A DNA stretch of 64,000 nucleotides from an uncultured Vicinamibacterales bacterium (GCA_964396055.1 CAYNDV010000003.1:14423-78422); one strand, 5' to 3'; positions 2,392 through 64,000 are shown, counted from the stretch's first letter. Program-made: numbers and translations. The notes: generated by a model not told the origin, from the letters alone.

Positions 2392-2448
2392 GGCATCCTC
2401 ATGGGCCCTTCCGCTCGATCGGCCCGCTCAGGAGTGCGCTCCGGGGGT

Positions 2449-2616
2449 TCACCACGCGGCCCCTGGGGCCGGCGCCATGCCGGCCATCTCGGCCACCGCG
2501 GTGAAGAACTCCCGCTTCCGCGCGGACGACAGCCCCCAGTTCACCGGGACGCTCTGGTAGCCCTCGTCAAACCCCTCGCCGGCCCGTCGGAAGTCGAAGA
2601 ACCCCCACGACGTCAT
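2449..2616 (-). CDS. Candidate 55-aa small protein, 57 nt upstream of the sensor gene (below the ORF-track length cut-off)
   Basis: Hand translation gives MTSWGFFDFRRAGEGFDEGYQSVPVNWGLSSARKREFFTAVAEMAGMAPAPGAAW*. 52 of 55 codons end in G/C, like genuine genes here. It has balanced, non-Arg/Pro-rich composition. No obvious Shine-Dalgarno sequence and no family recognised. Confidence 0.3.
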   Translation of the reverse strand: MTSWGFFDFRRAGEGFDEGYQSVPVNWGLSSARKREFFTAVAEMAGMAPAPGAAW

Positions 2617-2771
2617 GTCCGGGGAGCATAGCAGGGCCGGACGTGGTGGACCACCCCTGGGGCTCCTGCGCGAACCCGGCCCCCGGGGATGCGCCTGGCC
2701 GCAGGACGCCCTCAGGCCGAACGGCCGGTTCCGTTCGTCTAATCCGGTAGTCCCGGCGGAAGGGAGAGTTC

Positions 2772-3401
2772 ATGCGCCGCGTTCGCCGATACACGCTCGT
2801 CGCCCTGATTCTCGCAGCCCTGGCCGCCGGCGGCATCGCCGTGTCCGGCTACGGCAGCCGGGCCGTGTCGCTGGTCCGGGCGCTGGCCTGGAACCTCGAC
2901 ATCGACGCGGCCATGGACGTCGCGGGGATCGCCCCCGGCATGGTGGTCGGCGAAGCCGGCGCCGGTGACGGCTACTTCACCCTGCCGATGGCTCGGCGGG
3001 TCGGCGCATCGGGGGCCGTTTACGCCAACGACATCAGCGCCCGGGCGCTGCGGCAGCTCGCGGAGCGGGCCCGGCGCGACGGGCTGGCCCACGTGCACAC
3101 GATCGAAGGCGACATCGACGATCCCCGATTTCCCCGGCGCGATCTCGACCTGGTCGTCATCGTCCATGCGTTCCACGACTTCAGCCAGCCCGTCTCGTGG
3201 CTGCGCAACACCAGGAAGTACCTGAAGCCCGGCGCCGCGGTCGCCATCATCGACCGCGACCCGGCCCAGGGCGCCGAGGGCCATTTCTGGACCCGGGAGC
3301 GGATTCTCGGCTATGCCGCCGATGCCGGGTTCGAGCCGGTGAAGGTCGTCGACGGCATCTCGAAGCACCTCATCATCGTCCTCAGGCCGGGCCGCGGCTG
3401 A
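2772..3401 (+). CDS. Class I SAM-dependent methyltransferase with an N-terminal hydrophobic anchor
   Basis: Track ORF of 209 aa. Hydrophobic LVALILAALAAGGIAV is followed by motif-I-like VVGEAGAGDGYFT, then VYANDIS and DLVVIVHAFHD. Confidence 0.75.
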   Translation: MRRVRRYTLVALILAALAAGGIAVSGYGSRAVSLVRALAWNLDIDAAMDVAGIAPGMVVGEAGAGDGYFTLPMARRVGASGAVYANDISARALRQLAERARRDGLAHVHTIEGDIDDPRFPRRDLDLVVIVHAFHDFSQPVSWLRNTRKYLKPGAAVAIIDRDPAQGAEGHFWTRERILGYAADAGFEPVKVVDGISKHLIIVLRPGRG

Positions 3402-3542
3402 CGGGCGATGCTCCCGCGGATCTCCCGTCCGGGCACGCTTGCCGACGGCGGCGAGTGCTGCTAGTCTGCCCTCGCCCCCTGCGCCCGATCGGGGCGAAGG
3501 GCCGGCCGCAACCCACGCGGCCCCTGGAACGGGAGTCATACG

Positions 3543-4811
3543 ATGCATACGCCGGAACAGACACGACGGGATTTCCTGAAGGCCGTCACCGCGGCCACCG
3601 CGGTATCGTTCGTGGCGCCACGGGGCGTCGACGCCATCACCCAGCGGCGCAGCCTCGGCGCCAACGATCGTATCCGGATCGGCATCATCGGCTGCGGCAG
3701 CCGCGGCGTCGGGACCGAGATGGACAGCGTGCACAAGCACGCGCAGGCCGAGAACCTGGAAGTGATCGCCGTGTACGACCCCTGGCGCGTGGCCAGCGAG
3801 GAGGCGGCGGGCAAGGCGAAGGAGTGGTTCGGCACCGCCGCGCGGCAGTGCCGCAGCGTGGACGAACTGCTGGGCCTCCGCGAGGTCGACGCGGTGTTCA
3901 TCGCGTCGCCCGACCACTGGCATGCCGCCCACCTCGAGGCCGCCGCGAAGGCCGGCAAGCACATCTACGTCGAGAAGCCGATGGCCAACGAGATCGGCGA
4001 GCTGAACCGCGCCTACAAGGCGGCGAAGGCGTCGGGCGCCATCATCCAGGTGGGCACGCAGCTGCGCAGCACGCCCATCGCGGCGGGCTGCCGCGAGCTG
4101 CTCAAGTCGGGCAAGCTCGGGAAGATCTCGCGGATCGAGCAGATCCGCAACAGCGACAAGCCGTACTGGTACCAGTACCTCAAGCCCGACGTGAAGGCGG
4201 CGGATCTCGACTGGAAGACCTTCACCAAGGGTCGCACCAGGAAGGCGTTCGACCCGATCCTGTACTCGGGCTGGTACGGGTACTGGGAGTTCTCGCAGGG
4301 CCCGGTGCCCCAGTGGGGCGTGCATTTCCTCGACCTGGTGCACTTCATCGCCGACCTCGGCATCCCGCAGACGTGTGTGTGTCTCGGCGGCGTCTACACC
4401 TGGAGAGACGACCACCGCTTCACCGCCCCGGACCAGGTGCAGGCGCTCTGGCACTATCCCGAGGGGCTGATGATCAGCTACTCGACCAACTTCGGGAACA
4501 GCGCCGGTAACGTCACGCGGTTCGGCGGCGACAAGGGCATGCTCAGGCTGGACTGGTCGAACGCGACGTACACCGCCGATGGCGGCATCAACCGCGACGG
4601 TTCGATCCGGGGCGAGAACAAGATCGAGCCAATCGAACAGACCGACCACTGGGTGAACTGGTACCGGTGCATGCGCGACGGCAGGACGCCGCACGCGTCA
4701 CTCGACACCGGCTATCAGCACTCGGTGGCCAGCATCATGGCGACGATGTCCTACGAGACGGGCCGCCGAGCCCGGTTCGACGCCGGCAAACGCACGATCA
4801 CCCTCGACTGA
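3543..4811 (+). CDS. Gfo/Idh/MocA-family oxidoreductase with a twin-arginine (Tat) signal
   Basis: Track ORF of 422 aa. Tat motif in MHTPEQTRRDFLKAVTAATAVSF. Rossmann motif IRIGIIGCGSRG. SPDHWH and GKHIYVEKP are family signatures. Confidence 0.85.
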   Translation: MHTPEQTRRDFLKAVTAATAVSFVAPRGVDAITQRRSLGANDRIRIGIIGCGSRGVGTEMDSVHKHAQAENLEVIAVYDPWRVASEEAAGKAKEWFGTAARQCRSVDELLGLREVDAVFIASPDHWHAAHLEAAAKAGKHIYVEKPMANEIGELNRAYKAAKASGAIIQVGTQLRSTPIAAGCRELLKSGKLGKISRIEQIRNSDKPYWYQYLKPDVKAADLDWKTFTKGRTRKAFDPILYSGWYGYWEFSQGPVPQWGVHFLDLVHFIADLGIPQTCVCLGGVYTWRDDHRFTAPDQVQALWHYPEGLMISYSTNFGNSAGNVTRFGGDKGMLRLDWSNATYTADGGINRDGSIRGENKIEPIEQTDHWVNWYRCMRDGRTPHASLDTGYQHSVASIMATMSYETGRRARFDAGKRTITLD

Positions 4812-4840
4812 CGGTCTGGGGCCCGGATCCGAGGTTCTTC

Positions 4841-6028
4841 ATGTCCACTCACGATGTCGATCGGCGTCGGTTCCTGATGAGCGTGGCGGGGTCGGCGGCG
4901 GGCGCGGCGATGCTGCCGGCGGTGACGGCCGCCGGCGGGCCCTTCGGCGACAGCGACGACCAGACGGTGAGCCGCGGCGATGCAGGCGCCTCCGCCGTCA
5001 CGCAGCCCAAGGACCCCCTGCTCAGGTTCGCGGTGATCGGGTTGAACCACGGTCACATCAACGCCCAGACCAACGCGATCCTGAAGGCCCGCGGCGAACT
5101 CGCCTGGGTGTACGCCAGGGAGCCCGAGCTCGCGCAGGCTTTCCTCAAGCAGTACCCGTTCGCGAAGCTGGCGCGGAGCGAAGACGAGGTGCTGCAGGAC
5201 GCCAGCGTCAAGCTGGTGGTGAGTGCGGCCATCCCCGACGAGCGGGCGCCGCTCGGCATCCGCGTCATGCGGCACGGCAAGGACTTCATGTCCGACAAGC
5301 CCGGCGCCACCACCCTCGAGCAACTGGCCGAGGCGCGCCGGGTCCAGGCCGAGACCAAGCGCATCTACTCGATCATGTACAGCGAGCGCCTCGAGAACCG
5401 GGCGACGGTGCGGGCAGGCGAACTCGTGAAGGCCGGCGCCATCGGCCGTGTGCTCCAGACCGTGGGCCTGGGACCGCACCGCATGAACCCGAAGACGCGG
5501 CCCGCGTGGTTCTTCGAGCGCGCCCGCTACGGCGGCATCCTGTGCGACATCGCGTCGCACCAGGCCGACCAGTTCCTCTACTTCACCGGCTCGACGCAGG
5601 CCGAGGTCGTGGCGTCGCAGGTCGGCAACCTGAACAACCCCCAGTACCCGGGCCTCGAGGACTTTGGCGACGCCCTGGTCCGCGGCAATGGCGGCACGGG
5701 TTACATCCGCGTGGACTGGTTCACGCCCGACGGGCTCGCCACGTGGGGCGACGGCCGGCTGACCGTCATCGGCACCGACGGGTTCATCGAGATCCGGAAG
5801 AACATCGACATCGCCGGACGACCGGGCGGCAGCCACCTCTTCCTGGTGGACCGGAAAGAAACCCGCTACATCGACTGCGCGGACGTCGTGCTGCCCTACG
5901 GCGAGCAGTTGGTGGCGGATATCCTGAACCGCACCGAGACCGCGATGCCGCAGGCGCATTGTTTCCTGGCCACGGAGCTGATCCTGAAGGCCCAGGCGCA
6001 GGCGCGGCGGATCACTGCGTCAGCTTGA
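4841..6028 (+). CDS. Gfo/Idh/MocA-family oxidoreductase with a Tat-like signal
   Basis: In-frame ATG at codon 59 of track ORF 4667..6028 gives MSTHDVDRRRFLMSVAGSAAGAAML. LRFAVIGLNHGH (Rossmann) and KDFMSDKPG follow. The upstream 58 codons overlap the previous gene and look non-coding. Confidence 0.8.
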   Translation: MSTHDVDRRRFLMSVAGSAAGAAMLPAVTAAGGPFGDSDDQTVSRGDAGASAVTQPKDPLLRFAVIGLNHGHINAQTNAILKARGELAWVYAREPELAQAFLKQYPFAKLARSEDEVLQDASVKLVVSAAIPDERAPLGIRVMRHGKDFMSDKPGATTLEQLAEARRVQAETKRIYSIMYSERLENRATVRAGELVKAGAIGRVLQTVGLGPHRMNPKTRPAWFFERARYGGILCDIASHQADQFLYFTGSTQAEVVASQVGNLNNPQYPGLEDFGDALVRGNGGTGYIRVDWFTPDGLATWGDGRLTVIGTDGFIEIRKNIDIAGRPGGSHLFLVDRKETRYIDCADVVLPYGEQLVADILNRTETAMPQAHCFLATELILKAQAQARRITASA

Positions 6029-7487
6029 GCACCCACGCCGGCTGACCGAGCAGCGCTTCCGGGAGGGCCGGGAGCTCGATCGTGATCGTGCTCCCGGCCT
6101 TCGCGAAGCGGAGCGGGCCCGCCGCCCCGAGCAGCGTGGCGGCCTTCGGGCTGAGCGCGCCCGCGTCCTTCCACACGAACCGCGCCCCCGGCCATCGCGG
6201 CAGGATGGCGTACACCGCGTCGCCCTTCTTCGTGAAGAACGCCTCGATGGACGCCTTGCCGGCCGCCGGGGCCCGGGTGAGTTTCGAGACGTCGTACGCC
6301 GAGTCGTATTCCTTGTTGTAGTCGATCGAGGGCACCTGCCCCTCGCTCCACTGCTTGGCGACCGTGTGGGGCCGCGTGCCGTAGATGGCCTCGCCGTTCA
6401 CGCCGAGCCACGCGCCGATCTCGGCCAGGCGCTGCTCCATGATGACGGGTATCGTGCCGTCGGCGTCGGGTCCGATGTCCAGCAGCAGGTTGCCGCCCCG
6501 GCTCACGATGTCGACGAGGATCGTCACGAGTTCACGGCCCGTGCGGTAGTGTTCGAGACGCTCGGCGCGGTTGTAGCCGTACGAGAACCCCATCCCCCGG
6601 CTCTCTTCCCACGGGTGCGACGTGTCCGCCATGCCGGGCGTGTACTCGGTGGTCCAGTACCCGCCGTGGCGGTGGCGGCTGTCCTTGCCCCATCGGTCGT
6701 TGATGACGACCTCATCCTTCACGGCCGACTCGTTGAAGAGCCAGGCCAGCAGTTCCGGGCTCTTCCACTCGGCCGACGGCAGGTCCCACTCGCCATCCGC
6801 GAAGATGATCGAGGGCTCGTAGCGCGTGACGACGTCCTTGAACTGCGGAAACAGGTGCTCGCGCACGTAGCGCGGCTTATCCGCCAGCCAGAGCGGGTTG
6901 TACCACTCGTAGAGCGAGTAGTAGAACCCCATCTTCAGGCCCTTCGCGCGGACGGCCTTCGTCAGTTCGCCCAGCAGGTCGCGCTTCGGTCCGATCTCCA
7001 TCGCGTTCCAGGGCCGCCCCCACGTGGCCGACGCGTCGCGGCTGGGCCACAACGCGAACCCTTCGTGGTGCTTCGACGTGGGCACCACGTACTTCGCGCC
7101 GGAGGCGCGGAAGACCTCGGCCCAGTGGTCGGCATCGAACAACTCGGCGCGGAACTGCGGCGCGAAGTCCGCATACGCGAACTCCGGTCCGTACTGTCGC
7201 CGGTGATACTCCCACGTGCCCGCCTGGATGGGGCTGGGCTTCGGGCCCTTGCCGCCGGTCAGCGCGTTCCAGTACCACTCGGCGTACGCCAGCTTGCCCG
7301 GCAGCACGGGCGCATAGGCGGGCACCGAGTACACGCCCCAGTGGATGAAGATGCCGAACTTCGCGTCCTGGAACCACGCGGGCGTCGGGCGCCCGTCAAT
7401 CGACTCCCACGTCGGCTGATAGGGCTGGGCCGCCGCCGCCGCCGTCACACCCAGCACCGCCGCCAGCACGATCATCGTTTGTCGCAT
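6012..7487 (-). CDS. alpha-L-fucosidase, GH29 family
   Basis: Track ORF 6012..8504 is a read-through. The in-frame ATG at 7487 gives signal peptide MRQTMIVLAAVLGVTAAAAAQ, then AKFGIFIHWGVYSVPAY and TSKHHEGFALWPS (GH29 hallmarks). Confidence 0.85.
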   Translation of the reverse strand: MRQTMIVLAAVLGVTAAAAAQPYQPTWESIDGRPTPAWFQDAKFGIFIHWGVYSVPAYAPVLPGKLAYAEWYWNALTGGKGPKPSPIQAGTWEYHRRQYGPEFAYADFAPQFRAELFDADHWAEVFRASGAKYVVPTSKHHEGFALWPSRDASATWGRPWNAMEIGPKRDLLGELTKAVRAKGLKMGFYYSLYEWYNPLWLADKPRYVREHLFPQFKDVVTRYEPSIIFADGEWDLPSAEWKSPELLAWLFNESAVKDEVVINDRWGKDSRHRHGGYWTTEYTPGMADTSHPWEESRGMGFSYGYNRAERLEHYRTGRELVTILVDIVSRGGNLLLDIGPDADGTIPVIMEQRLAEIGAWLGVNGEAIYGTRPHTVAKQWSEGQVPSIDYNKEYDSAYDVSKLTRAPAAGKASIEAFFTKKGDAVYAILPRWPGARFVWKDAGALSPKAATLLGAAGPLRFAKAGSTITIELPALPEALLGQPAWVLKLTQ

Positions 7488-7513
7488 GCCGCCACTCCTC
7501 CGGCGCAACCGGG

Positions 7514-8176
7514 TCAATCCATCTCCCACAGGCGGAACCCGCCGGCAAACGCGTTGGCGTTGGCGCCGGCTCGGCACCCCTCCGGCAGGCTCGCCAGCTT
7601 CTTGACGTTGCCGCCGCCCAGCACGACGTCGTCCACCAGGAACGCCGCGACCAGCTCGCCGACGACCTTGGCGACCGCCCGCCTCCAACGGGCCCGGCCC
7701 AGGGCCTCGACGCCGCGGGTGCCGAGGTAGTCCTCGATCGTCTGCTTGCCGTAGGGAAAGTGGCCAAGCTCCATCGGGACGGCATGCCCGTTCACCACGA
7801 GGGCGGTGCCGAGGCCCGTGCCCAGGCCGAGGAACAGCATCGTGCCGCCGCGGTAGCTCCCGAGCGCCTGCATCACGGCATCGTTGACGACCCGCACCGG
7901 CCGGCGGAACGCCGCGCGGAAGCTGAAGCCGATCCAGCCCTTCCCCAGGTTGAACGGCTCGGCGGCGATACGCCCGTTGTGCACCACACCGGGGTACCCG
8001 ATGGCCACCGCGTCGTACTTCCAGTCCTTCGTGATCGCCTTCACGCCGCTCACCATGCGGCGCGGCGTCAATCGCGGACCCGACGGGAACTTCCGCGGCT
8101 CCTGCTCGCCGCTCAGGAGCACCTTGACGTTGTTCCCGCCAATGTCGATGACGAGCACCTTCTTCGGTGGTTTCAT
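7514..8176 (-). CDS. ROK-family sugar kinase, short polyphosphate-glucokinase-like form
   Basis: 220 aa. Motifs VLVIDIGGNNVKV, GYPGVVHNG, VVNDAVMQALG and LGLGTGLGTALV. Confidence 0.7.
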   Translation of the reverse strand: MKPPKKVLVIDIGGNNVKVLLSGEQEPRKFPSGPRLTPRRMVSGVKAITKDWKYDAVAIGYPGVVHNGRIAAEPFNLGKGWIGFSFRAAFRRPVRVVNDAVMQALGSYRGGTMLFLGLGTGLGTALVVNGHAVPMELGHFPYGKQTIEDYLGTRGVEALGRARWRRAVAKVVGELVAAFLVDDVVLGGGNVKKLASLPEGCRAGANANAFAGGFRLWEMD

Positions 8177-8280
8177 GGGAGCCTCCCTGTTCGCGGCCGG
8201 CCGCGTCCCGGAGAGTGTGCCACAGGATCCTGCGCCGCGCCCGGGTGAACTTTCGGCCGGGGATCGTCGTTACACTCTGT

Positions 8281-9534
8281 ATGGCCATGGCCCGGCAGAC
8301 CCTTCCTCTTTCCGTGCGGATCGGCGTCCAGACGCTGCGGGCAAATCCGATGCGCACGAGCCTGTCCACCCTCGGCGTCGTGATGGGGGCCGCGTCCCTC
8401 GTGGCCGTCCTGTCGGTGGGTGACGGTGCCGAACGTTTCGCGCGCGAGCAGATCGAGCGCCGCGGCCTGCAGGTGGTGGCGGTCGTGGCGAAGACCGCCG
8501 ACACGGTGGACGGCCTGCAGGTGCCCCGGGCCGACTACCCGCGCTTCACGCCCGACGACCTGCGAAGCCTGGCCGGCGCGGTGGGCCCGGGCACCGAGGT
8601 GCTGCTCACCATGGACGGCACCGGCCCGCTCACGCTGAAGGGACAACCTCGCGCCGCGCTGGTCCAGGGTCTCGACGTCGCGCACCCGCGCCGGATGAAC
8701 CTCCGCATCTGGAAGGGCCGGGCCTTCACGCCCGATGAGCTGGCGGATGGCGCGCCGGTGGCGGTCGTCGGGATGGCGCTGGCCACGCAGCTCGCCACCG
8801 AGGACAAGCCCGAGGACGCGCTCGACCGTGAACTGCCGTTCGCCGCCGGGCCGCTGCGCGTCATCGGCATCCAGGAGCCGCTGGCCGGCGAGCGGGTGCT
8901 CACGGTGACCGTCCCCTTCGCCCGGGCCGAGGCGCTGATGGTGCACGCCCCCCTGCCCCGGGCCCGCATGCTGGTCCTGAACCCCGCGCGCGTGGAGGAC
9001 GTCGTCGCCGTGAAGGGCGCCGCCGAGCAGTGGGCCGGCCGCCGGAACCCCGAGTGGCTCAGCCGCAAGCAGGTGACGATCGCCTCACAGGGCCTGGATC
9101 GCCTCCTGGCCATGAACCAGGGCATCCTGATCTTCAAGATTCTCATGGGCGCCTTCACCGCGATTTCGCTGATCGTCGGCGGCATCGGCATCATGAACGT
9201 GCTGCTCGCGTCCGTCGCGGAGCGCACGAAGGAGATCGGGGTGCGCAAGGCGGCGGGCGCCCGCCGACGCGACATCGTCGTGCAGTTCCTTGCCGAGTCC
9301 GTGGTCATCGCGACGGCGGGGGTGACGATTGGCGCGGCGCTCGGGATCGCGGGCGCCTATTTCGTCACGTGGATCATGCGGAAGCAGACGCTGGCGCTCG
9401 TGTACGCCGCCGTCACCTGGCAGACGCTCGCGGTGGCGATGGGCGCCGCCGCGGCCGTGGGACTGATCTTCGGCCTCTATCCCGCCCTGAAGGCCGCCCG
9501 GTTGTCGCCCGTCGAAGCGATGCGCTACGAATGA
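8281..9534 (+). CDS. ABC transporter permease, MacB/FtsX type, with no adjacent ATPase
   Basis: In-frame ATG at 8281 gives MAMARQTLPLSVRIGVQTLRANPMRTSLSTLGVVMGAASLV. A large periplasmic domain follows. C-terminal FtsX motifs are GGIGIMNVLLASVAERTKEIGVRKAAGA and YPALKAARLSPVEAMRYE. Confidence 0.8.
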   Translation: MAMARQTLPLSVRIGVQTLRANPMRTSLSTLGVVMGAASLVAVLSVGDGAERFAREQIERRGLQVVAVVAKTADTVDGLQVPRADYPRFTPDDLRSLAGAVGPGTEVLLTMDGTGPLTLKGQPRAALVQGLDVAHPRRMNLRIWKGRAFTPDELADGAPVAVVGMALATQLATEDKPEDALDRELPFAAGPLRVIGIQEPLAGERVLTVTVPFARAEALMVHAPLPRARMLVLNPARVEDVVAVKGAAEQWAGRRNPEWLSRKQVTIASQGLDRLLAMNQGILIFKILMGAFTAISLIVGGIGIMNVLLASVAERTKEIGVRKAAGARRRDIVVQFLAESVVIATAGVTIGAALGIAGAYFVTWIMRKQTLALVYAAVTWQTLAVAMGAAAAVGLIFGLYPALKAARLSPVEAMRYE

Positions 9535-9622
9535 CCGGCGCGGACCCGCCGCCGGGGGCCTGGTGCCGCCCAGCGCAGGACGGCACCGGGCCCACGGCGT
9601 GTGCCCGCTGGTGCAGCGGTGC

Positions 9623-10102
9623 CTACATGTCCATGTACGGCATCGGCGGGACGGCCCCCTTGAGGCGCGCGTACACCGTCAGCGCACCCCGGTGGTGCGC
9701 CGTGTGATCGACGATGGCGCCGAAGATGGCCATGCGGGGCACGCCGCCCATGATCGGGCCTTCCGGCAGCGGCGTCAGCAGGTCGGCGTCGCTCGACGCC
9801 TCAACCTTGGCGGTGGCGGCAGCCACCGCGCGCTCGAACCACTCGCGCGCCTTCGCCAGTGACGTGTACCCGTTGATGACCTTCGCGTGTTCCTCCCAGT
9901 TGAGGTCGAAGCCCTCGGGCCGGAACGCGCCTTCCAGGAACCAGTCGATCGTATGCGCGACGTGCGCCACCTGCTGGGCGGCACTCATCATCCCCTCGGC
10001 GGGGACGAACGTGGAATGGGCCTCCGTCAGGTTGCGGGTGGAGCGGTTGAAGTACTCGTGGGCGGACTTCAGCTCGATCAGGGCCTGCTGCGCCAGCGAC
10101 AT
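9623..10102 (-). CDS. DinB-family (DinB_2-like) protein
   Basis: 159 aa. Four-helix pattern with conserved His residues: AQQVAHVAHTIDW and IVDHTAHHRGAL. Confidence 0.7.
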   Translation of the reverse strand: MSLAQQALIELKSAHEYFNRSTRNLTEAHSTFVPAEGMMSAAQQVAHVAHTIDWFLEGAFRPEGFDLNWEEHAKVINGYTSLAKAREWFERAVAAATAKVEASSDADLLTPLPEGPIMGGVPRMAIFGAIVDHTAHHRGALTVYARLKGAVPPMPYMDM

Positions 10103-10143: not shown

Positions 10144-11514
10144 TTATTCGCCATCTGTCAAGCGTGAATCCAGCGGCAGCCGGATTTCGATGGCCAGTCC
10201 TCCGCCCGCCCGGTTCGTGGCCCGGACGGTGCCGCCGTGCGCCTCGACGGCCCGCCGGGCAATCGCCAGGCCCAGGCCGAAACCGGGGCCCTGGGGACTC
10301 GCCGCGCTGCGGTAGAACGGCTGGAAGATCGCGTCGAGTTCGGCCGCCGGCACCCCGGGGCCCTGGTCGAGCACCCGGACCACGAAGGTGCGGCCGCCGG
10401 CGTCGGGGCCGGCAGTGACCTCAACCGCGCTGCCGGGCCTGGTGAACTTCACCGCGTTGCGCACGACGTTCTCGAAGGCGCGGTGCAGCAGTTCCACGCG
10501 CACGCTGGCGGTCACCTCGCCTGCGGCCTCCAGGTGCACGGCCTTGCCCGCCGCCTGCGCCTCGAAGTGCGCGTCCTCCGCGATCGACGCCAGCAGATCG
10601 ACGAGGTCGGCCTGCTCGACGCGGTCGCGCGAGCGGTCGGCCACGTTGGCCTCGAGGCGCGACAGCGTGAGCACCTGCGCCACGAGGTCGTCCACGCGCT
10701 GGGCTTCCTGTTCGATGCGCTCCAGCGACGCCTCGACCCGCTGAGGGTTCTGGCGGGCGAGGCCGATGGCCGCCTGCAGCCGCGCCAGCGGCGATCGCAG
10801 CTCATGGGACACGTCGTGCAGCAACGACTGCCGGGCGGCCATCAGGGCCTGCAGTTGTGCCGCCATGTGGTCGAAGTGACGCCCCAGGTCCGCGACTTCG
10901 TCACGGCGGCGCCCCATCCGCGGCGCCACGCGCGTGTCGAGATGGCCCTGCGACAGGCGGCTGAACGCGGTCCGCAGGTCCCGGATGGGCCGCGTGACGT
11001 ACCAGGCCGCCAGGGCCCCGAAGATCAGGCTCGCGACCACCCCGGCGGTGATGGGCACCAGCGGCGACGGCGGCCCCGGGCGCAGGACGCGGCTGACGAG
11101 CGAGCGGTCGCGCTGGGGCACGAACAGCAGGTAGGTGACGCCGGCGTCCGTCGACACCAGCCGCGCGCCGTCGGCGCGGCGGCCGCCGGCCGTCATGGCC
11201 CGCGCGTCGGCCAGCGCGTCGGCCGGGATCGGCCGGCCCAGCAACTCCCGGCCCGAGGCCTCGACGGCAAGCACGGTGGTGTCGCCGTGCTGCCGCCAGT
11301 CCTCCATCAGCATCAGCAGGGCGTCGGGGCCGCCGTACGTCAGGGTGGCGGCCGCCGATCCCACGATGGAAGCCGCGCGCGGGCCACCCTCGATCGACGG
11401 CTCCAGTCCCTGGTCAGCCGTCCGGACGAAGTAGGCGGCTGCCAGGACGCCGGTGAACCCGACGAGCAACGCGGTCCAGTAGGAGAAGAAGAACTTCCAG
11501 AACAGGCGGCCCAT
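10144..11514 (-). CDS. Sensor histidine kinase (TM-periplasmic-TM-HAMP-HisKA-HATPase, CpxA-like)
   Basis: In-frame ATG at 11514 gives MGRLFWKFFFSYWTALLVGF. H-box is LLHDVSHELRSPLARL. N/G boxes are VVRNAVKFT, DQGPGVP and GFGLGLAIA. Confidence 0.85.
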   Translation of the reverse strand: MGRLFWKFFFSYWTALLVGFTGVLAAAYFVRTADQGLEPSIEGGPRAASIVGSAAATLTYGGPDALLMLMEDWRQHGDTTVLAVEASGRELLGRPIPADALADARAMTAGGRRADGARLVSTDAGVTYLLFVPQRDRSLVSRVLRPGPPSPLVPITAGVVASLIFGALAAWYVTRPIRDLRTAFSRLSQGHLDTRVAPRMGRRRDEVADLGRHFDHMAAQLQALMAARQSLLHDVSHELRSPLARLQAAIGLARQNPQRVEASLERIEQEAQRVDDLVAQVLTLSRLEANVADRSRDRVEQADLVDLLASIAEDAHFEAQAAGKAVHLEAAGEVTASVRVELLHRAFENVVRNAVKFTRPGSAVEVTAGPDAGGRTFVVRVLDQGPGVPAAELDAIFQPFYRSAASPQGPGFGLGLAIARRAVEAHGGTVRATNRAGGGLAIEIRLPLDSRLTDGE

Positions 11515-11519
11515 CGGGA

Positions 11520-12206
11520 TCACTCCTCGACGAACTGGTAACCCTGGCCGCGCACGGTCTGGATGCACGACCGGCCATCGGCCAGCGTGCCGATCTTCTG
11601 GCGCAGGCTGCTCACGTGCACGTCGATGCTGCGGTCGAAACGCGCCAGCGCGCGCCCCAGGCCCAAATCGGACAACTCGGCCTTGCTGACGACCCGTCCC
11701 GCGCGACCCGCCAGCACCGCCAGCAGATTGAACTCGGTGCTGGTCAGGTCCAGCGGCTGTCCCCGCCACTCGGCGCGGCGCTTCTCAGGCCACATCGCGA
11801 GCGCGCCCGCCAGGATGGGCGCCGCCGCCCCGGCCGAGGCGGCGGCATCGGCGCGACGGAGGATGGCGCGCAGCCGGGCCACCAGCTCGCGCGGGGTGCA
11901 CGGCTTCGGCACGTAGTCGTCGGCTCCCAGTTCCAGGCCGACGATTCGATCCACGTCGTCGCCGCGGGCCGTGAGCATCAGGACCGGCACGCGGCTGCGC
12001 GCGCGGATACGCCGGAGGGCCTCCACGCCGTTCAGGCCCGGCAGCATCACGTCGAGCACGACGATGGCGTAGCGGCCGGAGAGGGCCTCGGCCACGCCCG
12101 ACTCGCCGTCGTGGACGGCGGAGGTGTCGAAGCCTTCCTGCTGGAGGTACTCGCGCAGGAGGCCGGCCAGCTCCACGTCATCGTCGATCAACAGCACCCG
12201 GGTCAT
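11520..12206 (-). CDS. OmpR/PhoB-family response regulator (CpxR-like)
   Basis: In-frame ATG at 12206 gives MTRVLLIDDDVELAGLLREYLQQEGF. Other motifs are VLDVMLPGLNG, LGADDYVPKP, and the winged-helix segments RSIDVHVSSLRQKI and VRGQGYQF. Its stop lies 5 nt before the kinase start. Confidence 0.9.
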   Translation of the reverse strand: MTRVLLIDDDVELAGLLREYLQQEGFDTSAVHDGESGVAEALSGRYAIVVLDVMLPGLNGVEALRRIRARSRVPVLMLTARGDDVDRIVGLELGADDYVPKPCTPRELVARLRAILRRADAAASAGAAAPILAGALAMWPEKRRAEWRGQPLDLTSTEFNLLAVLAGRAGRVVSKAELSDLGLGRALARFDRSIDVHVSSLRQKIGTLADGRSCIQTVRGQGYQFVEE

Positions 12207-59709: not shown

Positions 59710-59783
59710 TGGGAGGTCGTTCAACGGTAGGACACGTGGCTCTGGACCACGTTATCGGGGTTCGAATCCCTGCCTCCCAGCCA
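59710..59783 (+). tRNA. tRNA-Gln (anticodon CUG), CCA encoded
   Basis: Hand-folded cloverleaf. Acceptor is TGGGAGG/CCTCCCA. D arm is GTTC-AACGGTA-GGAC. Anticodon arm is CGTGG-CTCTGGA-CCACG. T arm is CGGGG-TTCGAAT-CCCTG. Discriminator is G, followed by CCA. The U1-A72 pair is typical of bacterial tRNA-Gln. Confidence 0.9.
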
Positions 59784-59958
59784 ACTCACTCACATCTCAG
59801 CTCGTTCGGTGCCTGGTCGGCAGGCTTCCAGGTGCTCCACGGCTCGCGCCGTTCCGGACACGAATCCCTGCCTCCCAGCCAACTCATTCACATCTCAGCT
59901 CGTTCGTTGCCTGGTCGGCAAGTCTCCAGGTGCTCCGCGCCTCGCGCCAATTCGGATA
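59763..59958 (+). repeat. 98-bp tandem direct repeat (2 units, about 90% identical) that duplicates the last 21 nt of tRNA-Gln plus 77 nt downstream
   Basis: Unit 1 (59763-59860) and unit 2 (59861-59958) both begin CGAATCCCTGCCTCCCAGCCAACTCA. A third CGAAT at 59959 starts another unit and then diverges. Confidence 0.9.
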
Positions 59959-60062
59959 CGAATGACAAGTCTCGCACCCTGACTCGCTTGGTGCGTCGGC
60001 CACGCTTCAGACTAACGCGAACCCCACGGCGGCGTAGAACGCATGCGGTAGACTACCCGCAG

Positions 60063-60845
60063 TTGGTCTTGAAGGGCGGGAATGCGCTGGACCTCGTGCA
60101 CGGCCTCTCGGCCCGGGGCTCGCTCGACATTGATTTCTCGATCGAGGGTGACTTCCACAACCTGCCAGAGATCGAAGCTCGGTGCTTGCGGGCGCTCCGC
60201 GATCGCTTCGACTCGGCCGGGTTTCTGCTATTCGACGAGAAGTTCAGTCGGAAGCCGAGTTCTCCGAGACCCGGACAGGACGATCGATGGGGCGGCTACC
60301 GGATCGAATTCAAGCTGCTGGCGAAAAACAAGGCCGCTCGGTTGGGTAATGACTTCGGAGCGCGGCAGCGCAATGCCGAAGTCATCGGTTACGCTCAAGA
60401 GAAGGTTTTCAAGATCGAGATCAGCAAGTTCGAGTTCTGTGCGCCAAAGATCCGCAAGGACTTCGACGACTACACGATCTACGTCTATCCGCTCGAACTG
60501 ATCGCCGCCGAGAAGCTAAGGGCCATTTGCCAGCAGATGGCCGAGTACGTGCCGGTCCGGAACAAGCGGGCGCGGGCGCGCGATTTCTACGACATCCACA
60601 CAGTTGTGACGAGTGCGCACCTGAACTTCGGCAGTTCGCAGTTTCAGGAACTGGTTCGCGCCGTCTTCGAGGCGAAGGCAGTGCCCCTGTCGTTGCTCAG
60701 CAGGATAGAGGGGCAACGTGAATTCCACCGCCTGGACTGGCCGGCGGTCTTGGAGACGCTTTCTGTGCCGGCGCGGGAGTACGACTTCTACTTCAACTTC
60801 GTTGTCACCGAGGTTGAGAAGCTAGAACCCCTTTGGCACGAATAG
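60063..60845 (+). CDS. Nucleotidyltransferase AbiEii/AbiGii-family toxin-like protein, apparently lacking the usual N-terminal ~40-50 aa
   Basis: The family core is LKGGNALDLVHGLSARGSLDIDFS. There is no in-frame ATG upstream. Only TTG (60063, 60069) or GTG (59991, giving an Arg-rich leader) are available. The track ORF 59550..60845 reads through the tRNA and repeat. Confidence 0.6.
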   Translation: MVLKGGNALDLVHGLSARGSLDIDFSIEGDFHNLPEIEARCLRALRDRFDSAGFLLFDEKFSRKPSSPRPGQDDRWGGYRIEFKLLAKNKAARLGNDFGARQRNAEVIGYAQEKVFKIEISKFEFCAPKIRKDFDDYTIYVYPLELIAAEKLRAICQQMAEYVPVRNKRARARDFYDIHTVVTSAHLNFGSSQFQELVRAVFEAKAVPLSLLSRIEGQREFHRLDWPAVLETLSVPAREYDFYFNFVVTEVEKLEPLWHE

Positions 60846-61283
60846 GCGCCAATCCGAAATGAACTCCTTCTCGCGCATGCCGTACGTGAGGTAGAAATCA
60901 AACTCGAGGCCCAGTCTCTGAAGTGCCTCGAGCGAGGTGACCGGAAAGTCGGCGCGCTGCATGTAGAACCCGACCACCTGATGGTACGGGTACACGTATT
61001 CGAGCTTCTTGAGCGTCGCGATCAGCACGTTGACGGACGCACGACCGCGGGCCGTTCGATAGGCCTCCAGCACCTGGTATGGACCTCCGGCATACCCTGG
61101 CCTGACGGCGATATCGATCAAGGTCCGTTCGAGTTTCGTCGCGTCGACGAGGCTTCCGTCCAGCGCCGTCTGCTGGCTGACCTCAAGTCGGCCAGTGTGC
61201 TTGCCCGCAATCGTAACGATTCGCAACCCGCCAACAGAGTATGTCGCGCGAGACGATCGTTGACTGCCGCAGGCTCGTGCCAT
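60822..61283 (-). CDS. AbiEi-family antitoxin-like protein, C-terminal domain only (no recognisable wHTH)
   Basis: From the in-frame ATG at 61283. Motifs are TKLERTLIDIAVRPGYAGGPYQVLEAY and YVYPYHQVVGFYMQ. It is convergent with the AbiEii-like gene and overlaps its 3' end by 24 nt. GC3 is lower than in host genes. Confidence 0.5.
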   Translation of the reverse strand: MARACGSQRSSRATYSVGGLRIVTIAGKHTGRLEVSQQTALDGSLVDATKLERTLIDIAVRPGYAGGPYQVLEAYRTARGRASVNVLIATLKKLEYVYPYHQVVGFYMQRADFPVTSLEALQRLGLEFDFYLTYGMREKEFISDWRLFVPKGF

Positions 61284-61293
61284 CTGCCGCTGC

Positions 61294-61316
61294 TGTGTAG
61301 TATATACACCTACACA
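61294..61316. promoter_or_regulatory. Palindrome TGTGTAG-TATATACAC-CTACACA abutting the ATG of the small ORF (candidate operator/-10 region)
   Basis: 7-bp arms flank an AT-rich TATATA core. The last A of the right arm is the A of the ATG at 61316. This is the divergent gap between the AbiEi-like gene and the plus-strand cassette. Confidence 0.4.
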
Positions 61317-61483
61317 TGAAGGACCCCAAGAAGGTCCGGGATGAGCCGTACAAGCGACTGGCTCCAGCGGTGATCGAGGCCGGCGGGACAATCGACGTGT
61401 GGGTGAGACCGTCCACCGTCGCCAAGTGCAGAGGAGAGGTGAAGGAGCTTACAGTTCTCTTCACACCGGAGTGGGCAGGATAG
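61316..61483 (+). CDS. Candidate 55-aa protein, first gene of the plus-strand cassette (below the ORF-track cut-off)
   Basis: MKDPKKVRDEPYKRLAPAVIEAGGTIDVWVRPSTVAKCRGEVKELTVLFTPEWAG*. It has balanced composition, and roughly 80% of codons end in G/C. The competing minus-strand reading here (MSRRPRSPLEPVACTAHPG...) looks like antisense junk. Confidence 0.45.
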   Translation: MKDPKKVRDEPYKRLAPAVIEAGGTIDVWVRPSTVAKCRGEVKELTVLFTPEWAG

Positions 61484-61523
61484 TGCTTTCGGGAGTAGAT
61501 TCCGAGACGGTTACAGACGCACG

Positions 61524-62375
61524 ATGAAGACCCTGCTCGTCGGCTTCGATTCGGCCTGGACGCCAGCAAACGCCGGCGCCCTGGTGGGGATCTTGTGTCT
61601 TGAGGACGGCACCTATCAAGAGCTTGGGCCGCCCGAGATCGCGACATTCGGCGAGGCGCAGCGCCTGGTCGAGGACTGGCAGGCAGTCCACAATCCCAGC
61701 TCGACTCTCGTGCTACTCGACCAACCTACGGTCGTTGTGAATCCGACGGGTTGCAGGCCGGTTGAACGCATCGCCGGGGCGGCCATCAGCCGACGCTACG
61801 GCGGCATGCAACCCGCCAGCAGGGCGAAGGCAACCATGTTCGGCCCGGAGGCGCCAGTCTGGAGGTTCATCGATCGATTTGGTGGACCGGCTGTCCCTCA
61901 GGATCGCTACGCGACGAGCCGAGTCCTTGAAACCTACCCCGCCTTGGCGCTCATTGCTCTGGGGTGGTGCCTCCCGGACCGTCCCGAGACTGGGCGGGGA
62001 CGACCCGCAGGCCGTCTACCGAAGTACAACCCCGCCAACCGGAAGAAGTTCAACCAAGATGACTGGCGCCATGTCTGTGCCAAGGTCCGCGACCAACTCC
62101 TTCGCCGCAGCCTCGTTGAACTCGCCAGATGGGCCGACGGAGCACGAACTGCGGACCGACCGCGCAAGGCGGACCAGGACAAGCTAGACGCCTGCCTCTG
62201 CCTGCTCGTGGCGTTGCATCTGGCGGAAGGGAAGGAGTGTCTCGTCGTCGGAAACTACCAGTCAGGCTACATCCTCGTCCCAGACAGCGAGGAACTTCGG
62301 GGCGAGTTGACGAACCGCTGCCGCGATATCAGCTACACGCCGGGCGACTGGTTGGCTATCGCGTCATTGGGGTAG
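61524..62375 (+). CDS. DUF429-like (RNase-H-fold, predicted nuclease) protein
   Basis: 283 aa. LLVGFDSAW (N-terminal acidic motif), VLETYPALALIALG and DKLDACLCLLVALHLAEG match the DUF429 pattern as I recall it. Confidence 0.5.
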   Translation: MKTLLVGFDSAWTPANAGALVGILCLEDGTYQELGPPEIATFGEAQRLVEDWQAVHNPSSTLVLLDQPTVVVNPTGCRPVERIAGAAISRRYGGMQPASRAKATMFGPEAPVWRFIDRFGGPAVPQDRYATSRVLETYPALALIALGWCLPDRPETGRGRPAGRLPKYNPANRKKFNQDDWRHVCAKVRDQLLRRSLVELARWADGARTADRPRKADQDKLDACLCLLVALHLAEGKECLVVGNYQSGYILVPDSEELRGELTNRCRDISYTPGDWLAIASLG

Positions 62376-62426
62376 GAGTGGGAGCACGATGGTCTATACC
62401 CGCCCGCCGAAATAGGACCACGCGCA

Positions 62427-63497
62427 ATGCTGTACGCCGAACTGCACGGGAAGTTGGACGACAGCGCGTCCAACCACGAACGCATCGAGGACATCCTCAC
62501 TTCGACCGTGTTCGGCACCCTGTTCCTGGCCGACACGGGAGTTCAGGTTCTCTGCGAATGGCTTGGTTGCGCCAGGCGAATGGCATCAGACGGAAGAATC
62601 GCCGAGGAAATCCCTGCCATCCCCGCCGACTCCGCGATGCAGCACTGGTTCTGGCCCAGCCTTGCAGAGGCCGAGCCGGATCTCCTGATCAGGCTCGGTC
62701 ACAAGTTGTTCGTGATCGAGGTCAAGTATCAGTCAGCGATGGGCCAAGGTGACGAAGACGGCGTCGCAGCTGTGGGCCATGTCGAGGTTCCAACGAAGTT
62801 CGGCAACCAACTGGCTCGACAGTGGCGGTCCTGTTCCGTTGACTCACCACGGTTCGACCGATACGCACCGGATCTGCAGGCGGCAATTGCCGAGTGTGAG
62901 TTGACCCTCGTGTACCTTGTCTCAAGCCAGCACTATCGGCGTGCTACGAGAGAGTTGCACGGGTCGTGGGCCGAGATAGGACCGTCCGCTGGGAAGGCCG
63001 CCAGTCTGTGCCTCCTGACTTGGCAGGACCTCCATCGAGTCCTGGTGCTCCGGCACCGGCGCCTGGGCGGAGTCACCCCACGTTGGGTCCCGGATCTGGC
63101 CGCCTTGCTTGCCGACAGGCGCAAGCTGGCGGCGTTCATCGGGTTTCCACAGTCGATGGGTCAACAGTTGGGGGGAGCCGCGGCCCAGGTGTCCGCGTGG
63201 GGGACTAGGTGGAACACACCAAGAGCTGAACTGCCGTTTCAGGCGCTCACGAAACTGGACCTGTCCGCTGTCCACGAACTGGCACAAGCGATGTCGGCGT
63301 ATGCGGTTGCGCGGAAGCCAAGAGCACCGCGGGCGCTGGACGGGCTCGACTGCCGGGCCATCCACGCGGTCGCGGCCGGCGACTGGCCGCTAACGAAGTC
63401 AGCGACCCGCGAACGTTGGCTGGCGGGACTGGATCTGGCCGCGATCCGACTCGTTGCGGGAAACTGGCAATCGGTAATCGGAGGCACTGATGACTGA
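62427..63497 (+). CDS. PD-(D/E)XK-type nuclease-like N-terminal domain plus a C-terminal triple ~30-aa repeat
   Basis: 356 aa. Nuclease-like motifs are ERIEDILTSTVFGTL, EAEPDLLIRLG, LFVIEVKY and NQLARQW. The C-terminus carries three copies of an LD..A(V/I)(H/R)..A...W motif: KLDLSAVHELAQAM, GLDCRAIHAVAAGDW, GLDLAAIRLVAGNW. Confidence 0.5.
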   Translation: MLYAELHGKLDDSASNHERIEDILTSTVFGTLFLADTGVQVLCEWLGCARRMASDGRIAEEIPAIPADSAMQHWFWPSLAEAEPDLLIRLGHKLFVIEVKYQSAMGQGDEDGVAAVGHVEVPTKFGNQLARQWRSCSVDSPRFDRYAPDLQAAIAECELTLVYLVSSQHYRRATRELHGSWAEIGPSAGKAASLCLLTWQDLHRVLVLRHRRLGGVTPRWVPDLAALLADRRKLAAFIGFPQSMGQQLGGAAAQVSAWGTRWNTPRAELPFQALTKLDLSAVHELAQAMSAYAVARKPRAPRALDGLDCRAIHAVAAGDWPLTKSATRERWLAGLDLAAIRLVAGNWQSVIGGTDD

Positions 63498-64000
63498 GTT
63501 GGATGCGAAGACATTCGCGGTCGGCGTTCACGACGCCATCCGTGCGGCACGGAACGTCTATGGCGCCGTGCGGCAGATGCGCGAGGAAATCAAGGTGGCG
63601 CTTGAACAACCACCGACGCCGCCGTTGTTTGATCTCGGGATCCGGGCTGAAGCTTCAAACCGCCACCACCCTGAAGAGAAGATCCTGCGCTCGTGGGAGG
63701 GCCGATTCTACGGCGACAACCCAGCCGAGGCAGACGGTGAACCGGAAGACGAGGACGATGACCTGGATGGCGAACCGGACGAAGAGGAGTCACCGAAGCG
63801 ACGGGGACCGCTGGTCATCGTCGCAGGACAGCGGCTGGCTTACATCAAGACCGTGATCTTCCAGGCTGGCGGGGAAGCAGCAGAACCTCACATTCTCTAC
63901 GGTGTACTTCACAACGCCCGCGTCGGGTGTGGCTGGCCTGAGATTGAGGTGCGTCGCTACAAACTGCAGGAAGTCTTCGCGTTGATCAACGCTGGCCGCA
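63490..64000 (+). CDS. Hypothetical protein with a strongly acidic linker (partial; runs off the window and is not in the ORF track)
   Basis: The ATG at 63490 overlaps the previous gene by 8 nt. Hand translation is open for 170 codons: MTELDAKTFAVGVHDAIRAARNVYGAVRQMREEIKVALEQ...DNPAEADGEPEDEDDDLDGEPDEEESPKRRGPLVIVAGQRLAYIKTVIFQ... Confidence 0.55.
   Translation, partial: MTELDAKTFAVGVHDAIRAARNVYGAVRQMREEIKVALEQPPTPPLFDLGIRAEASNRHHPEEKILRSWEGRFYGDNPAEADGEPEDEDDDLDGEPDEEESPKRRGPLVIVAGQRLAYIKTVIFQAGGEAAEPHILYGVLHNARVGCGWPEIEVRRYKLQEVFALINAGR

Follow-up and report, generated by a model that had tools for sequence, protein, structure and literature searches.

A conserved gene pair encoding a predicted PD-(D/E)XK nuclease and an acidic-loop partner in a probable defence islet beside tRNA-Gln of an uncultured Vicinamibacterales bacterium

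Locus organisation and conservation of the g3-g4 pair

The right end of a 64,000-nucleotide (nt) stretch of DNA from an uncultured Vicinamibacterales bacterium (GCA_964396055.1, CAYNDV010000003.1:14423-78422; hereafter the window, with all coordinates counted from its first letter) carries four plus-strand open reading frames (ORFs), g1 to g4, which lie downstream of a tRNA-Gln gene and of AbiE-type abortive-infection genes (Table 1). They are tightly packed, with gaps of 40 nt between g1 and g2 and of 51 nt between g2 and g3 and an overlap of 8 nt between g3 and g4, exactly as an initial annotation of the sequence had described them; the same annotation had proposed that the four ORFs make up a single uncharacterised defence system. 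This proposal is not upheld by comparison with other genomes: g3 and g4 alone are syntenic elsewhere and constitute a conserved, overlapping and translationally coupled two-gene module. The region is best explained as the right-hand part of a decayed defence islet of about 4.4 kb, running from tRNA-Gln to a core esterase gene and stacking independent modules, namely a broken AbiE pair, a stand-alone g2 (the PADLOC candidate PDC-S44) and the coupled g3-g4; this explanation, taken jointly and as a whole, is reasonably probable.

The g3 family is rare: a search space of 5.8 billion proteins yielded only 56 clusters at 90% identity, and a scan of species-representative genomes with g3 gave 17 loci. 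As seen by tBLASTn and by clustering of the neighbouring genes, what these loci have in common is g3 and, immediately downstream and usually overlapping with it, a homologue of g4; the latter follows g3 in every locus in which the downstream region is intact. The picture from the side of g4 is the same: an exhaustive profile search recovered 179 representatives (clusters at 50% identity) among 1.84 billion, nearly all of them stand-alone and about 230-250 amino acids (aa) long, and in every locus examined a g3-like gene lies directly upstream with an overlap of 4-16 nt. The pair is found in about 20 independent loci that belong to Acidobacteriota, Myxococcota (Kofleriaceae), Gammaproteobacteria, Planctomycetota and others. 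A third conserved gene beside the pair was also considered and rejected, all-against-all clustering of the genes within +/-5 kb having returned only g3, g4 and antisense shadow ORFs. Searches for carriage of g3, g4 or g1 by phages or plasmids gave no close matches.

Among the g3-g4 loci, g1 and g2 are confined to the window's own locus. The gene upstream of g3 changes from locus to locus: those in this position in L003, L005 and L006 are unrelated to g2 and to one another; in L003, which harbors the closest relative of the pair (g4 63% identical), the upstream gene encodes an unrelated 256-aa protein. Homologues of g2 that are 35-40% identical to it occur in 32 metagenomic loci, in which g2 itself is the only common gene and which contain neither g1, g3 or g4 nor any other conserved neighbour. 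Because of this distribution, established from the g3, g4 and g2 sides, the cassette is to be divided into no fewer than two independent units, a lone g2 and the g3-g4 pair. The initial annotation had named a lack of synteny in other genomes as an argument against a common system; such a lack is seen for g1 and g2, and not for g3-g4.

The window stops inside g4, whose last 66 codons lie beyond its right edge. They were read from L001, a Logan metagenome contig that is 100% identical to the window across an overlap of 601 nt and extends it rightward; L001 is one of two Logan contigs on which the exact g3 protein is present. The expectation that the last gene, and perhaps more of the system, would run off the window proved right for g4 (236 aa) and for nothing further, the system ending with g4.

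Table 1. Features at the right end of the window (coordinates counted from its first letter unless a contig is named)
Feature	Position	Strand	Evidence	Remark
tRNA-Gln (anticodon CTG)	59710-59783	+	ARAGORN; Rfam tRNA, 58 bits	left boundary of low-GC island
Two tandem 98-nt copies, 89% identical	59763-59860 and 59861-59958	+	repeat search	att-like scar
AbiEii-type nucleotidyltransferase toxin gene	60045-60845	+	Pfam PF08843; PADLOC AbiEii	
AbiEi-like fragment, C-terminal domain only	60822-61283	-	PADLOC AbiEi	
Palindrome TGTGTAG-N9-CTACACA	61294-61316	no strand	read from sequence	
g1, 55-aa orphan ORF	61316-61483	+	no family match	
g2, 283 aa, DUF429 / RNase H-like	61524-62375	+	PADLOC PDC-S44; Pfam PF04250	
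g3, 356 aa, predicted PD-(D/E)XK nuclease with C-terminal repeats	62427-63497	+	motif; AF2 model	
g4, 236 aa in full	63490-64000, rest beyond the window	+	identical contig L001, 3745-4455	

Predicted properties of the g3, g4 and g2 proteins

The initial annotation had assigned g3 to the PD-(D/E)XK nucleases, and its homologues agree with that assignment. Residues E21, D22, P84, D85, E98, K100 and Q128 are invariant in an alignment of 31 sequences; this signature corresponds to the PD-(D/E)XK motif accompanied by a RecB/Cas4-like Q motif. The AlphaFold2 (AF2) model reaches a predicted local distance difference test (pLDDT) score above 90 over most of residues 1-235, with a disordered insert at residues 106-122, and places D85 ahead of the strand 86-90 and the ExK element within the strand 93-100, in the order expected for the PD-(D/E)XK fold with its α-β-β-β-α-β core. 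g3 is predicted from these features to be a RecB/Cas4-like PD-(D/E)XK nuclease with an intact catalytic motif. The nuclease domain, which is N-terminal and extends from residue 1 to about residue 235, is followed by C-terminal repeats: the last 120 residues are made of three helical repeats of the type LDLxAIxxVA..W. This threefold repeat, noticed in the initial annotation, is supported by shuffling, the score of the second repeat against the third being reached by none of 2000 shuffles and that of the first against the second by 4 of 2000. The number of repeat copies differs among homologues.

No match to g3 was found in Pfam or NCBIfam, and a search of the Protein Data Bank (PDB) with a g3 profile came back empty. 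A Foldseek search of the PDB with the model gave a top list rich in PD-(D/E)XK nucleases, all of them non-significant (best E 0.04), that includes McrC, R.BspD6I, LmuA, SfsA, AF1548, SduA, HerA-DUF4297, Can2 and Hjc. In PADLOC, the model PDC-M15A is weakly matched by all 31 homologues (best E 5e-9) and by the window's g3 at E 5e-6 over residues 18-107 only; judged by these profile matches, g3 is a distant relative of PDC-M15A.

The g4 gene is preceded by a GGAGG ribosome-binding site (RBS). The AF2 model of its product (pLDDT 80.9; predicted template modelling score, pTM, 0.79) consists of a 34-residue N-terminal helix and a β-sheet domain into which a disordered, polyacidic loop (residues 80-103; 84-103 as delimited in the model) is inserted; the acidic tract EADGEPEDEDDDLDGEPDEE occupies residues 80-99. 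g4 has no match in Pfam, NCBIfam or PADLOC, and a search for its fold in the PDB and in the viral BFVD gave nothing with E < 0.3; the weak match to the archaeal β-barrel protein PH1033/1wmm (E 2.0) is not significant. g4 is without detectable relatives in the libraries searched despite the confidence of the prediction. The g4 family has almost no invariant polar residues, and g4 is for this reason unlikely to be an enzyme.

What the g4 family does maintain is the acidic loop. A stretch of 20 residues with at least 10 Asp or Glu is present in 96% of the 101 full-length representatives, the median being 14 in 20 residues; the position of the loop, around residue 80, is kept and the sequence itself is not conserved. 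The initial annotation had pointed to the acidic tract of this partner, and g4 is indeed unusual. That composition is conserved and sequence is not, in a disordered loop of a protein encoded next to a nuclease, suggests that the loop mimics nucleic acid by its polyanionic character. The loop carries a net charge of -13 and the C-terminal domain one of +8; this charge pattern would suit an intramolecular, autoinhibited nucleic-acid-binding surface. The basic folded C-terminal domain spans residues 106-236 (window 63805-64000, L001 4060-4455) and contains the lysine-rich segment PPKGVAKPKGK.

In the case of g2, the DUF429-like RNase H fold named in the initial annotation is recovered by Pfam (PF04250, E 2e-9, 38 bits for a cut-off of 23). 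DUF429 has been placed in clade D of the RNase H-like superfamily, together with RuvC-type resolvases (Majorek et al. 2014, PMC3985635). Acidic residues are kept in the family at D9 (within GFDSAW), D66, E136 and D217/D219/D222, in 21 aligned sequences; these conserved carboxylates are compatible with an active enzyme. A sequence search of solved structures with g2 gave nothing meaningful. The match to the PADLOC model PDLC05020 (PDC-S44) is far stronger (E 3.1e-88, 294 bits) and practically end to end, residues 2-270 aligning with positions 5-268 of a 277-position profile. With this full-length hidden Markov model (HMM) match and its occurrence as a single-gene unit, g2 is a member of PDC-S44: it is a single-domain protein without a conserved partner, as in that single-gene candidate, and no feature sets it apart from the family. 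A conserved partner or a small upstream ORF was considered for g2 and rejected, none recurring across the 32 loci.

Phage defence candidates (PDCs) are a set of 145 candidates that were drawn from genes lying inside BREX, DISARM and type I restriction-modification (RM) systems (Payne et al., bioRxiv 10.1101/2024.01.29.577857). PDC-S44 is itself only a candidate, and the name therefore provides no mechanism for g2; no functional study of PDC-S44 or PDC-M15 was found in the literature. The statement of the initial annotation that no named system corresponds to the cassette is thus to be divided: g2 is PDC-S44 and g3 is distantly related to PDC-M15A, and g4 matches no PADLOC model.

Defence context and possible function of the pair

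Eleven g3-g4 loci, the window included, were annotated gene by gene with Pfam and PADLOC, and known defence or toxin-antitoxin (TA) genes are located within about 8 kb of the pair in 10 of them. The window contributes AbiE and PDC-S44, in agreement with the defence-island context that the initial annotation had recognised. The neighbours in the nine other loci are, locus by locus: HEPN_AbiU2, HicAB and PDC-S15; EVE-McrB/McrC; an MmeI-type enzyme, HNH and DUF433/DUF5615; Prok-E2/Prok-Ub and ResIII; a BREX operon (PglX, helicase, PglZ) followed by an MrcB_N gene and then by the pair; HEPN-UvrD and Gp49/HTH; Peptidase M78 and DUF4238; PglZ-BrxL with the pair directly after; and SNF2 plus an MmeI-like methyltransferase, again with the pair directly after. 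A pooled scan of ten further loci from metagenome-assembled genomes (MAGs) brought up a DruE helicase (E 4e-100), NsnB, GajA/AriA/HEC-01A-type ATPases, mad3, integrases and transposases.

Individual loci offer additional detail. The pair stands co-directionally at the very end of BREX-like operons, like an appended accessory, in L064 (1470-7741), L025 (1-9580) and the P0071 locus; these operons comprise PglZ-BrxL, PglX-helicase-PglZ and SNF2 plus an MmeI-like methyltransferase, and the intervening gaps are short, with about 50 nt in L064. In L003, the gene directly downstream of the pair (7820-8599, plus strand) encodes an FRG-domain protein that matches PDC-S15 (PADLOC E 1e-56), so that a different PDC adjoins the same pair. 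In the gammaproteobacterial MAG locus L007, a gene for an 1849-aa DruE-like (Druantia) helicase (2298-7847, minus strand; PADLOC E 4e-100) is located immediately upstream of the pair and divergent from it. L024 carries, about 4 kb from the pair, a Prok-E2_D / Prok_Ub cluster (776-2891, minus strand) of the bacterial ubiquitin-like conjugation type; since the same contig also has Rad52-like and SSB genes, this copy may sit in an element resembling a prophage or an integrative and conjugative element (ICE).

Several copies of the pair are decaying. In L013, from a Vicinamibacterales MAG, an ORF for a 435-aa IS256/Mutator-like transposase (8780-10087, minus strand) is inserted between g3 (7881-8858) and g4 (10556-11569), and a short peptide-coding repeat (VRWRTHPRLPRLRQTMS) is duplicated around the insert. 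Both g3 and g4 are frameshifted in L019, and g3 is truncated in L014 and L018. Such turnover is expected of defence-island cargo.

In terms of nomenclature, the closest catalogued relative of the pair is PDC-M15, a two-gene cassette (FAM_00087>>FAM_00103) with 241 occurrences in RefSeq v209 (bioRxiv 10.1101/2024.01.29.577857). Both are A>>B cassettes found next to or inside BREX/RM-type systems, and the g3 homologues all match PDC-M15A, though weakly. In contrast, the match of the window's g3 is limited to the N-terminal 100 residues or so, g3 possesses an additional C-terminal repeat region, and no relationship of g4 to PDC-M15B was detected. At E <= 1, no PADLOC model was matched by g4, by three of its homologues or by the partners of the short pairs described below; ten remote members of the g4 family, scanned at E <= 0.1, gave nothing but a single insignificant BrxA match (E 0.035). 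An identity of g4 with PDC-M15B by transitivity is rejected on the grounds that these ten remote members lack a PDC-M15B match. Since the match of the A gene is weak and partial and that of the B gene absent even for remote relatives of g4, g3-g4 cannot be filed as PDC-M15. The pair is not recognised as a system by the PADLOC 2023 models and is a variant of a nuclease-partner candidate module.

Unnamed and shorter A+B pairs, whose A proteins form another branch of the g3 family, occur on plasmids of the Bacillus cereus group and of Niallia and in WOR-1/Elusimicrobiota MAGs, where a g3-like nuclease of 219-290 aa overlaps with a partner of 177-200 aa. Like g4, these partners begin with a helix and contain the motifs 'P..W...Y' and, towards the C-terminus, 'PL(M/F)D(I/L)T...I.E.I'; unlike g4, they lack the acidic loop, and their A proteins lack the C-terminal repeats. 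Homology between g4 and the short partners is suggested by these shared motifs, recognised by eye, but was not accepted, the comparison by hhalign being not significant (probability 3%, E 0.013). On the Niallia plasmid NZ_CP095745.1 (L060 6001-7360) and the B. cereus plasmid CP009368.1 (L061 6001-7369), a g3-like gene of 258-260 aa overlaps with a partner of 198-200 aa; both genes of each pair are annotated as hypothetical, and the Niallia pair is flanked by HNH and GIY-YIG nuclease genes.

More broadly, g3-g4 can be likened to McrBC, Lamassu LmuA, Shedu SduA, HerA-DUF4297 and Hachiman HamA, in which a PD-(D/E)XK-type effector is restrained by a partner or by its oligomeric state; nucleases of these systems appear among the top Foldseek matches of g3, none of which is significant. 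By comparison with these systems, g3-g4 comes without an NTPase, SMC or helicase partner, and g4 is small and, as predicted, non-enzymatic.

As to how the pair may work, we infer complex formation, gating by the loop, a trigger and a target along the following lines. g3 and g4 would form a complex in which a catalytically inert g4 silences the g3 nuclease as long as no phage has infected the cell: the loop of g4, polyanionic and resembling nucleic acid, would occupy a DNA-binding surface either on g3 or on the basic C-terminal domain of g4 itself. A phage cue, whether foreign DNA ends, a phage protein or the loss of neighbouring BREX/RM function, would displace the loop, and the freed nuclease would cut DNA so that the phage is restricted or the infection aborted. 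A mechanistic analogy for the acidic loop is offered by the trigger loop of DISARM DrmA, a disordered segment that occludes the DNA-binding site and autoinhibits the defence complex until it is displaced by foreign DNA (PMC9142583); the two proteins are unrelated, and the DrmA loop lies within the helicase itself. That g3-g4 is an uncatalogued two-component anti-phage system, in which a partner with a fold absent from PDB/BFVD gates a RecB/Cas4-like nuclease through a polyanionic loop, and which acts as a portable add-on to BREX/RM-type systems, is the most far-reaching reading of these data and is rather unlikely.

Several points weigh against the explanation of the region as a stack of independent modules with a loop-gated g3-g4. 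The fold matches of g3 all fall short of significance, and its nuclease call derives from the motif and from the enrichment of nucleases among these matches; a contact between the g4 loop and g3 is speculation; and in one of the g3-g4 loci (L062) no neighbouring defence gene was recognised. In the window, g2, g3 and g4 follow each other closely and no terminator separates them; they may be co-transcribed and may even cooperate locally in function. Finally, defence by g2, g3-g4, PDC-S44 and PDC-M15 has the status of a candidate function, attributed to g2 and g3-g4 through guilt by association.

The layout of the module, in which a small, acidic and non-catalytic protein accompanies a nuclease encoded just before it, would also suit a type II TA or addiction module. 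In that case a g3 nuclease toxin would be blocked directly by a labile acidic g4 antitoxin, and the module would stabilise the mobile island rather than respond specifically to phage. The overlapping genes imply a fixed stoichiometry, and the pair occurs among other TA pairs (HicAB, DUF433/DUF5615, Gp49/HTH, AbiE) and mobile-element genes. However, g4 lacks a recognisable DNA-binding domain of the helix-turn-helix (HTH) or ribbon-helix-helix (RHH) type for autoregulation, is big for an antitoxin with its 236 aa and large folded domain, and recurs with g3 next to BREX and RM operons or as their last genes, a pattern that is used to find defence candidates. We regard this reading as unlikely; TA and abortive-infection defence are not mutually exclusive, and it therefore overlaps with the favoured anti-phage role of g3-g4.

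Proximity to BREX, MmeI-type enzymes, McrBC and an MrcB_N-domain gene also accords with an accessory restriction module, type IV-like or added on to BREX/RM, in which g4 would confer specificity by recognising DNA that is modified or foreign, and would guide the g3 nuclease to direct cleavage of the invader. The β-rich, basic C-terminal domain of g4 (net charge +8) and its non-significant fold match to PH1033/1wmm (E 2.0) could be cited in support, but g4 shows no significant similarity to EVE, SRA, ASCH or other modified-base readers, no NTPase is present, and the acidic loop finds no explanation unless it is autoinhibitory; the restriction reading is improbable. Both alternatives overlap with the anti-phage model and differ from it mainly in trigger and target. 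The idea that g1-g2-g3-g4 form one four-gene defence system, combining both nucleases with a small and an acidic protein, is suggested by the co-directional ORFs, their short gaps and 8-nt overlap, the lack of a terminator-like site between them and a left edge (61294) at the place where the AbiEi fragment is cut short, as if the block had arrived together. It is very improbable and is rejected, being largely refuted by synteny missing from both sides: the roughly 20 g3-g4 loci have no homologue of g1 or g2, the 32 g2 loci none of g3 or g4, the closest relative L003 carries an unrelated 256-aa gene upstream, and the PADLOC model matched by g2 describes a candidate consisting of one gene.

Part of the locus is ordinary: PDC-S44 already covers g2, and what is left of AbiE is debris. 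The interest of the locus lies in g3-g4, a rare and cleanly delimited pair that is spread across phyla and repeatedly found beside BREX, RM, McrBC and Druantia genes; with its confident, unmatched model and an acidic loop of conserved composition, g4 gives rise to the concrete hypothesis of a loop-gated activation of the nuclease. Should this hypothesis be correct, it would add a minimal nuclease-regulator architecture to those of known defence systems and provide a functional context for the related candidate PDC-M15.

Boundaries of the islet, AbiE remnants and g1

The lower-GC block that the initial annotation had described after a tRNA with an att-like duplication, beside AbiE remnants, is present: the GC content, about 0.70 before the tRNA-Gln gene, is down to 0.59-0.66 beyond it, and the 98-nt duplication spans the last 21 nt of the tRNA gene and 77 nt downstream. 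The tandem duplication looks like a scar left when elements integrated at, or were excised from, this tRNA gene twice in succession. Extension to the right with L001 located the end of the cassette: g4 terminates at the equivalent of window position 64200 or so and is followed by a convergent, high-GC esterase gene (PF00756), the GC content being back at 0.70-0.74 right after the g4 stop codon. In L001, the right end of the island showed no third copy of the tRNA 3' end (attR), and there is no integrase between tRNA-Gln and the esterase gene in the window and L001. Because the esterase gene and the return of the GC content come directly after g4, and neither an integrase nor a third tRNA-end copy is found, the island has a length of only some 4.4 kb and closes with g4. 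An integrative island would be defined by an integrase and by flanking tRNA-derived direct repeats; here the tandem duplication at the left end is the sole repeat. The tRNA is the only non-coding RNA found in the island.

AbiE genes are normally co-directional, with abiEi in first position. At this locus, AbiEii and the AbiEi fragment point towards each other and share 24 nt. AbiEii is near full length (Pfam PF08843, E 1.1e-25, profile positions 13-227 of 238), its start codon being uncertain; the AbiEi fragment, also called as a gene on the identical contig L001 (1077-1538), matches its PADLOC model (E 8e-8) over profile positions 138-255 of 265 only and lacks the first 100 residues or so, which form the DNA-binding end. 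An intact abiEi-abiEii operon, with co-directional genes and an AbiEi comprising both a winged helix and a C-terminal domain, is thus not what the locus contains. As the convergent ORF matches only the C-terminal half of AbiEi, the AbiE pair is broken and rearranged.

g1 is probably a doubtful orphan ORF that belongs to no conserved module. It has no match in Pfam, PADLOC or NCBIfam, and no homologue in any of the 32 g2 loci, in any of the g3-g4 loci or among plasmids; it lacks an RBS and is not called by the gene caller on the identical contig L001. Its GC content by codon position (0.61/0.46/0.73) is gene-like.

The palindrome fused to the first ATG, as initially annotated, exists, though its class is not above chance. 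Its arms, TGTGTAG (61294-61300) and CTACACA (61310-61316), are separated by an AT-rich nine-nucleotide spacer (TATATACAC), and the final A doubles as the first base of the g1 start codon ATG. A role as a significant regulatory signal was rejected: the window contains 146 perfect inverted repeats with 7-nt arms and spacers of 3-12 nt for 106 +/- 10 in composition-preserving shuffles, and no sigma-70-like promoter was scored at the palindrome. The AbiEi fragment breaks off at about 61283, 10 nt from the palindrome; as it has lost its N-terminus just beside this element, the palindrome may mark a recombination breakpoint rather than an operator.

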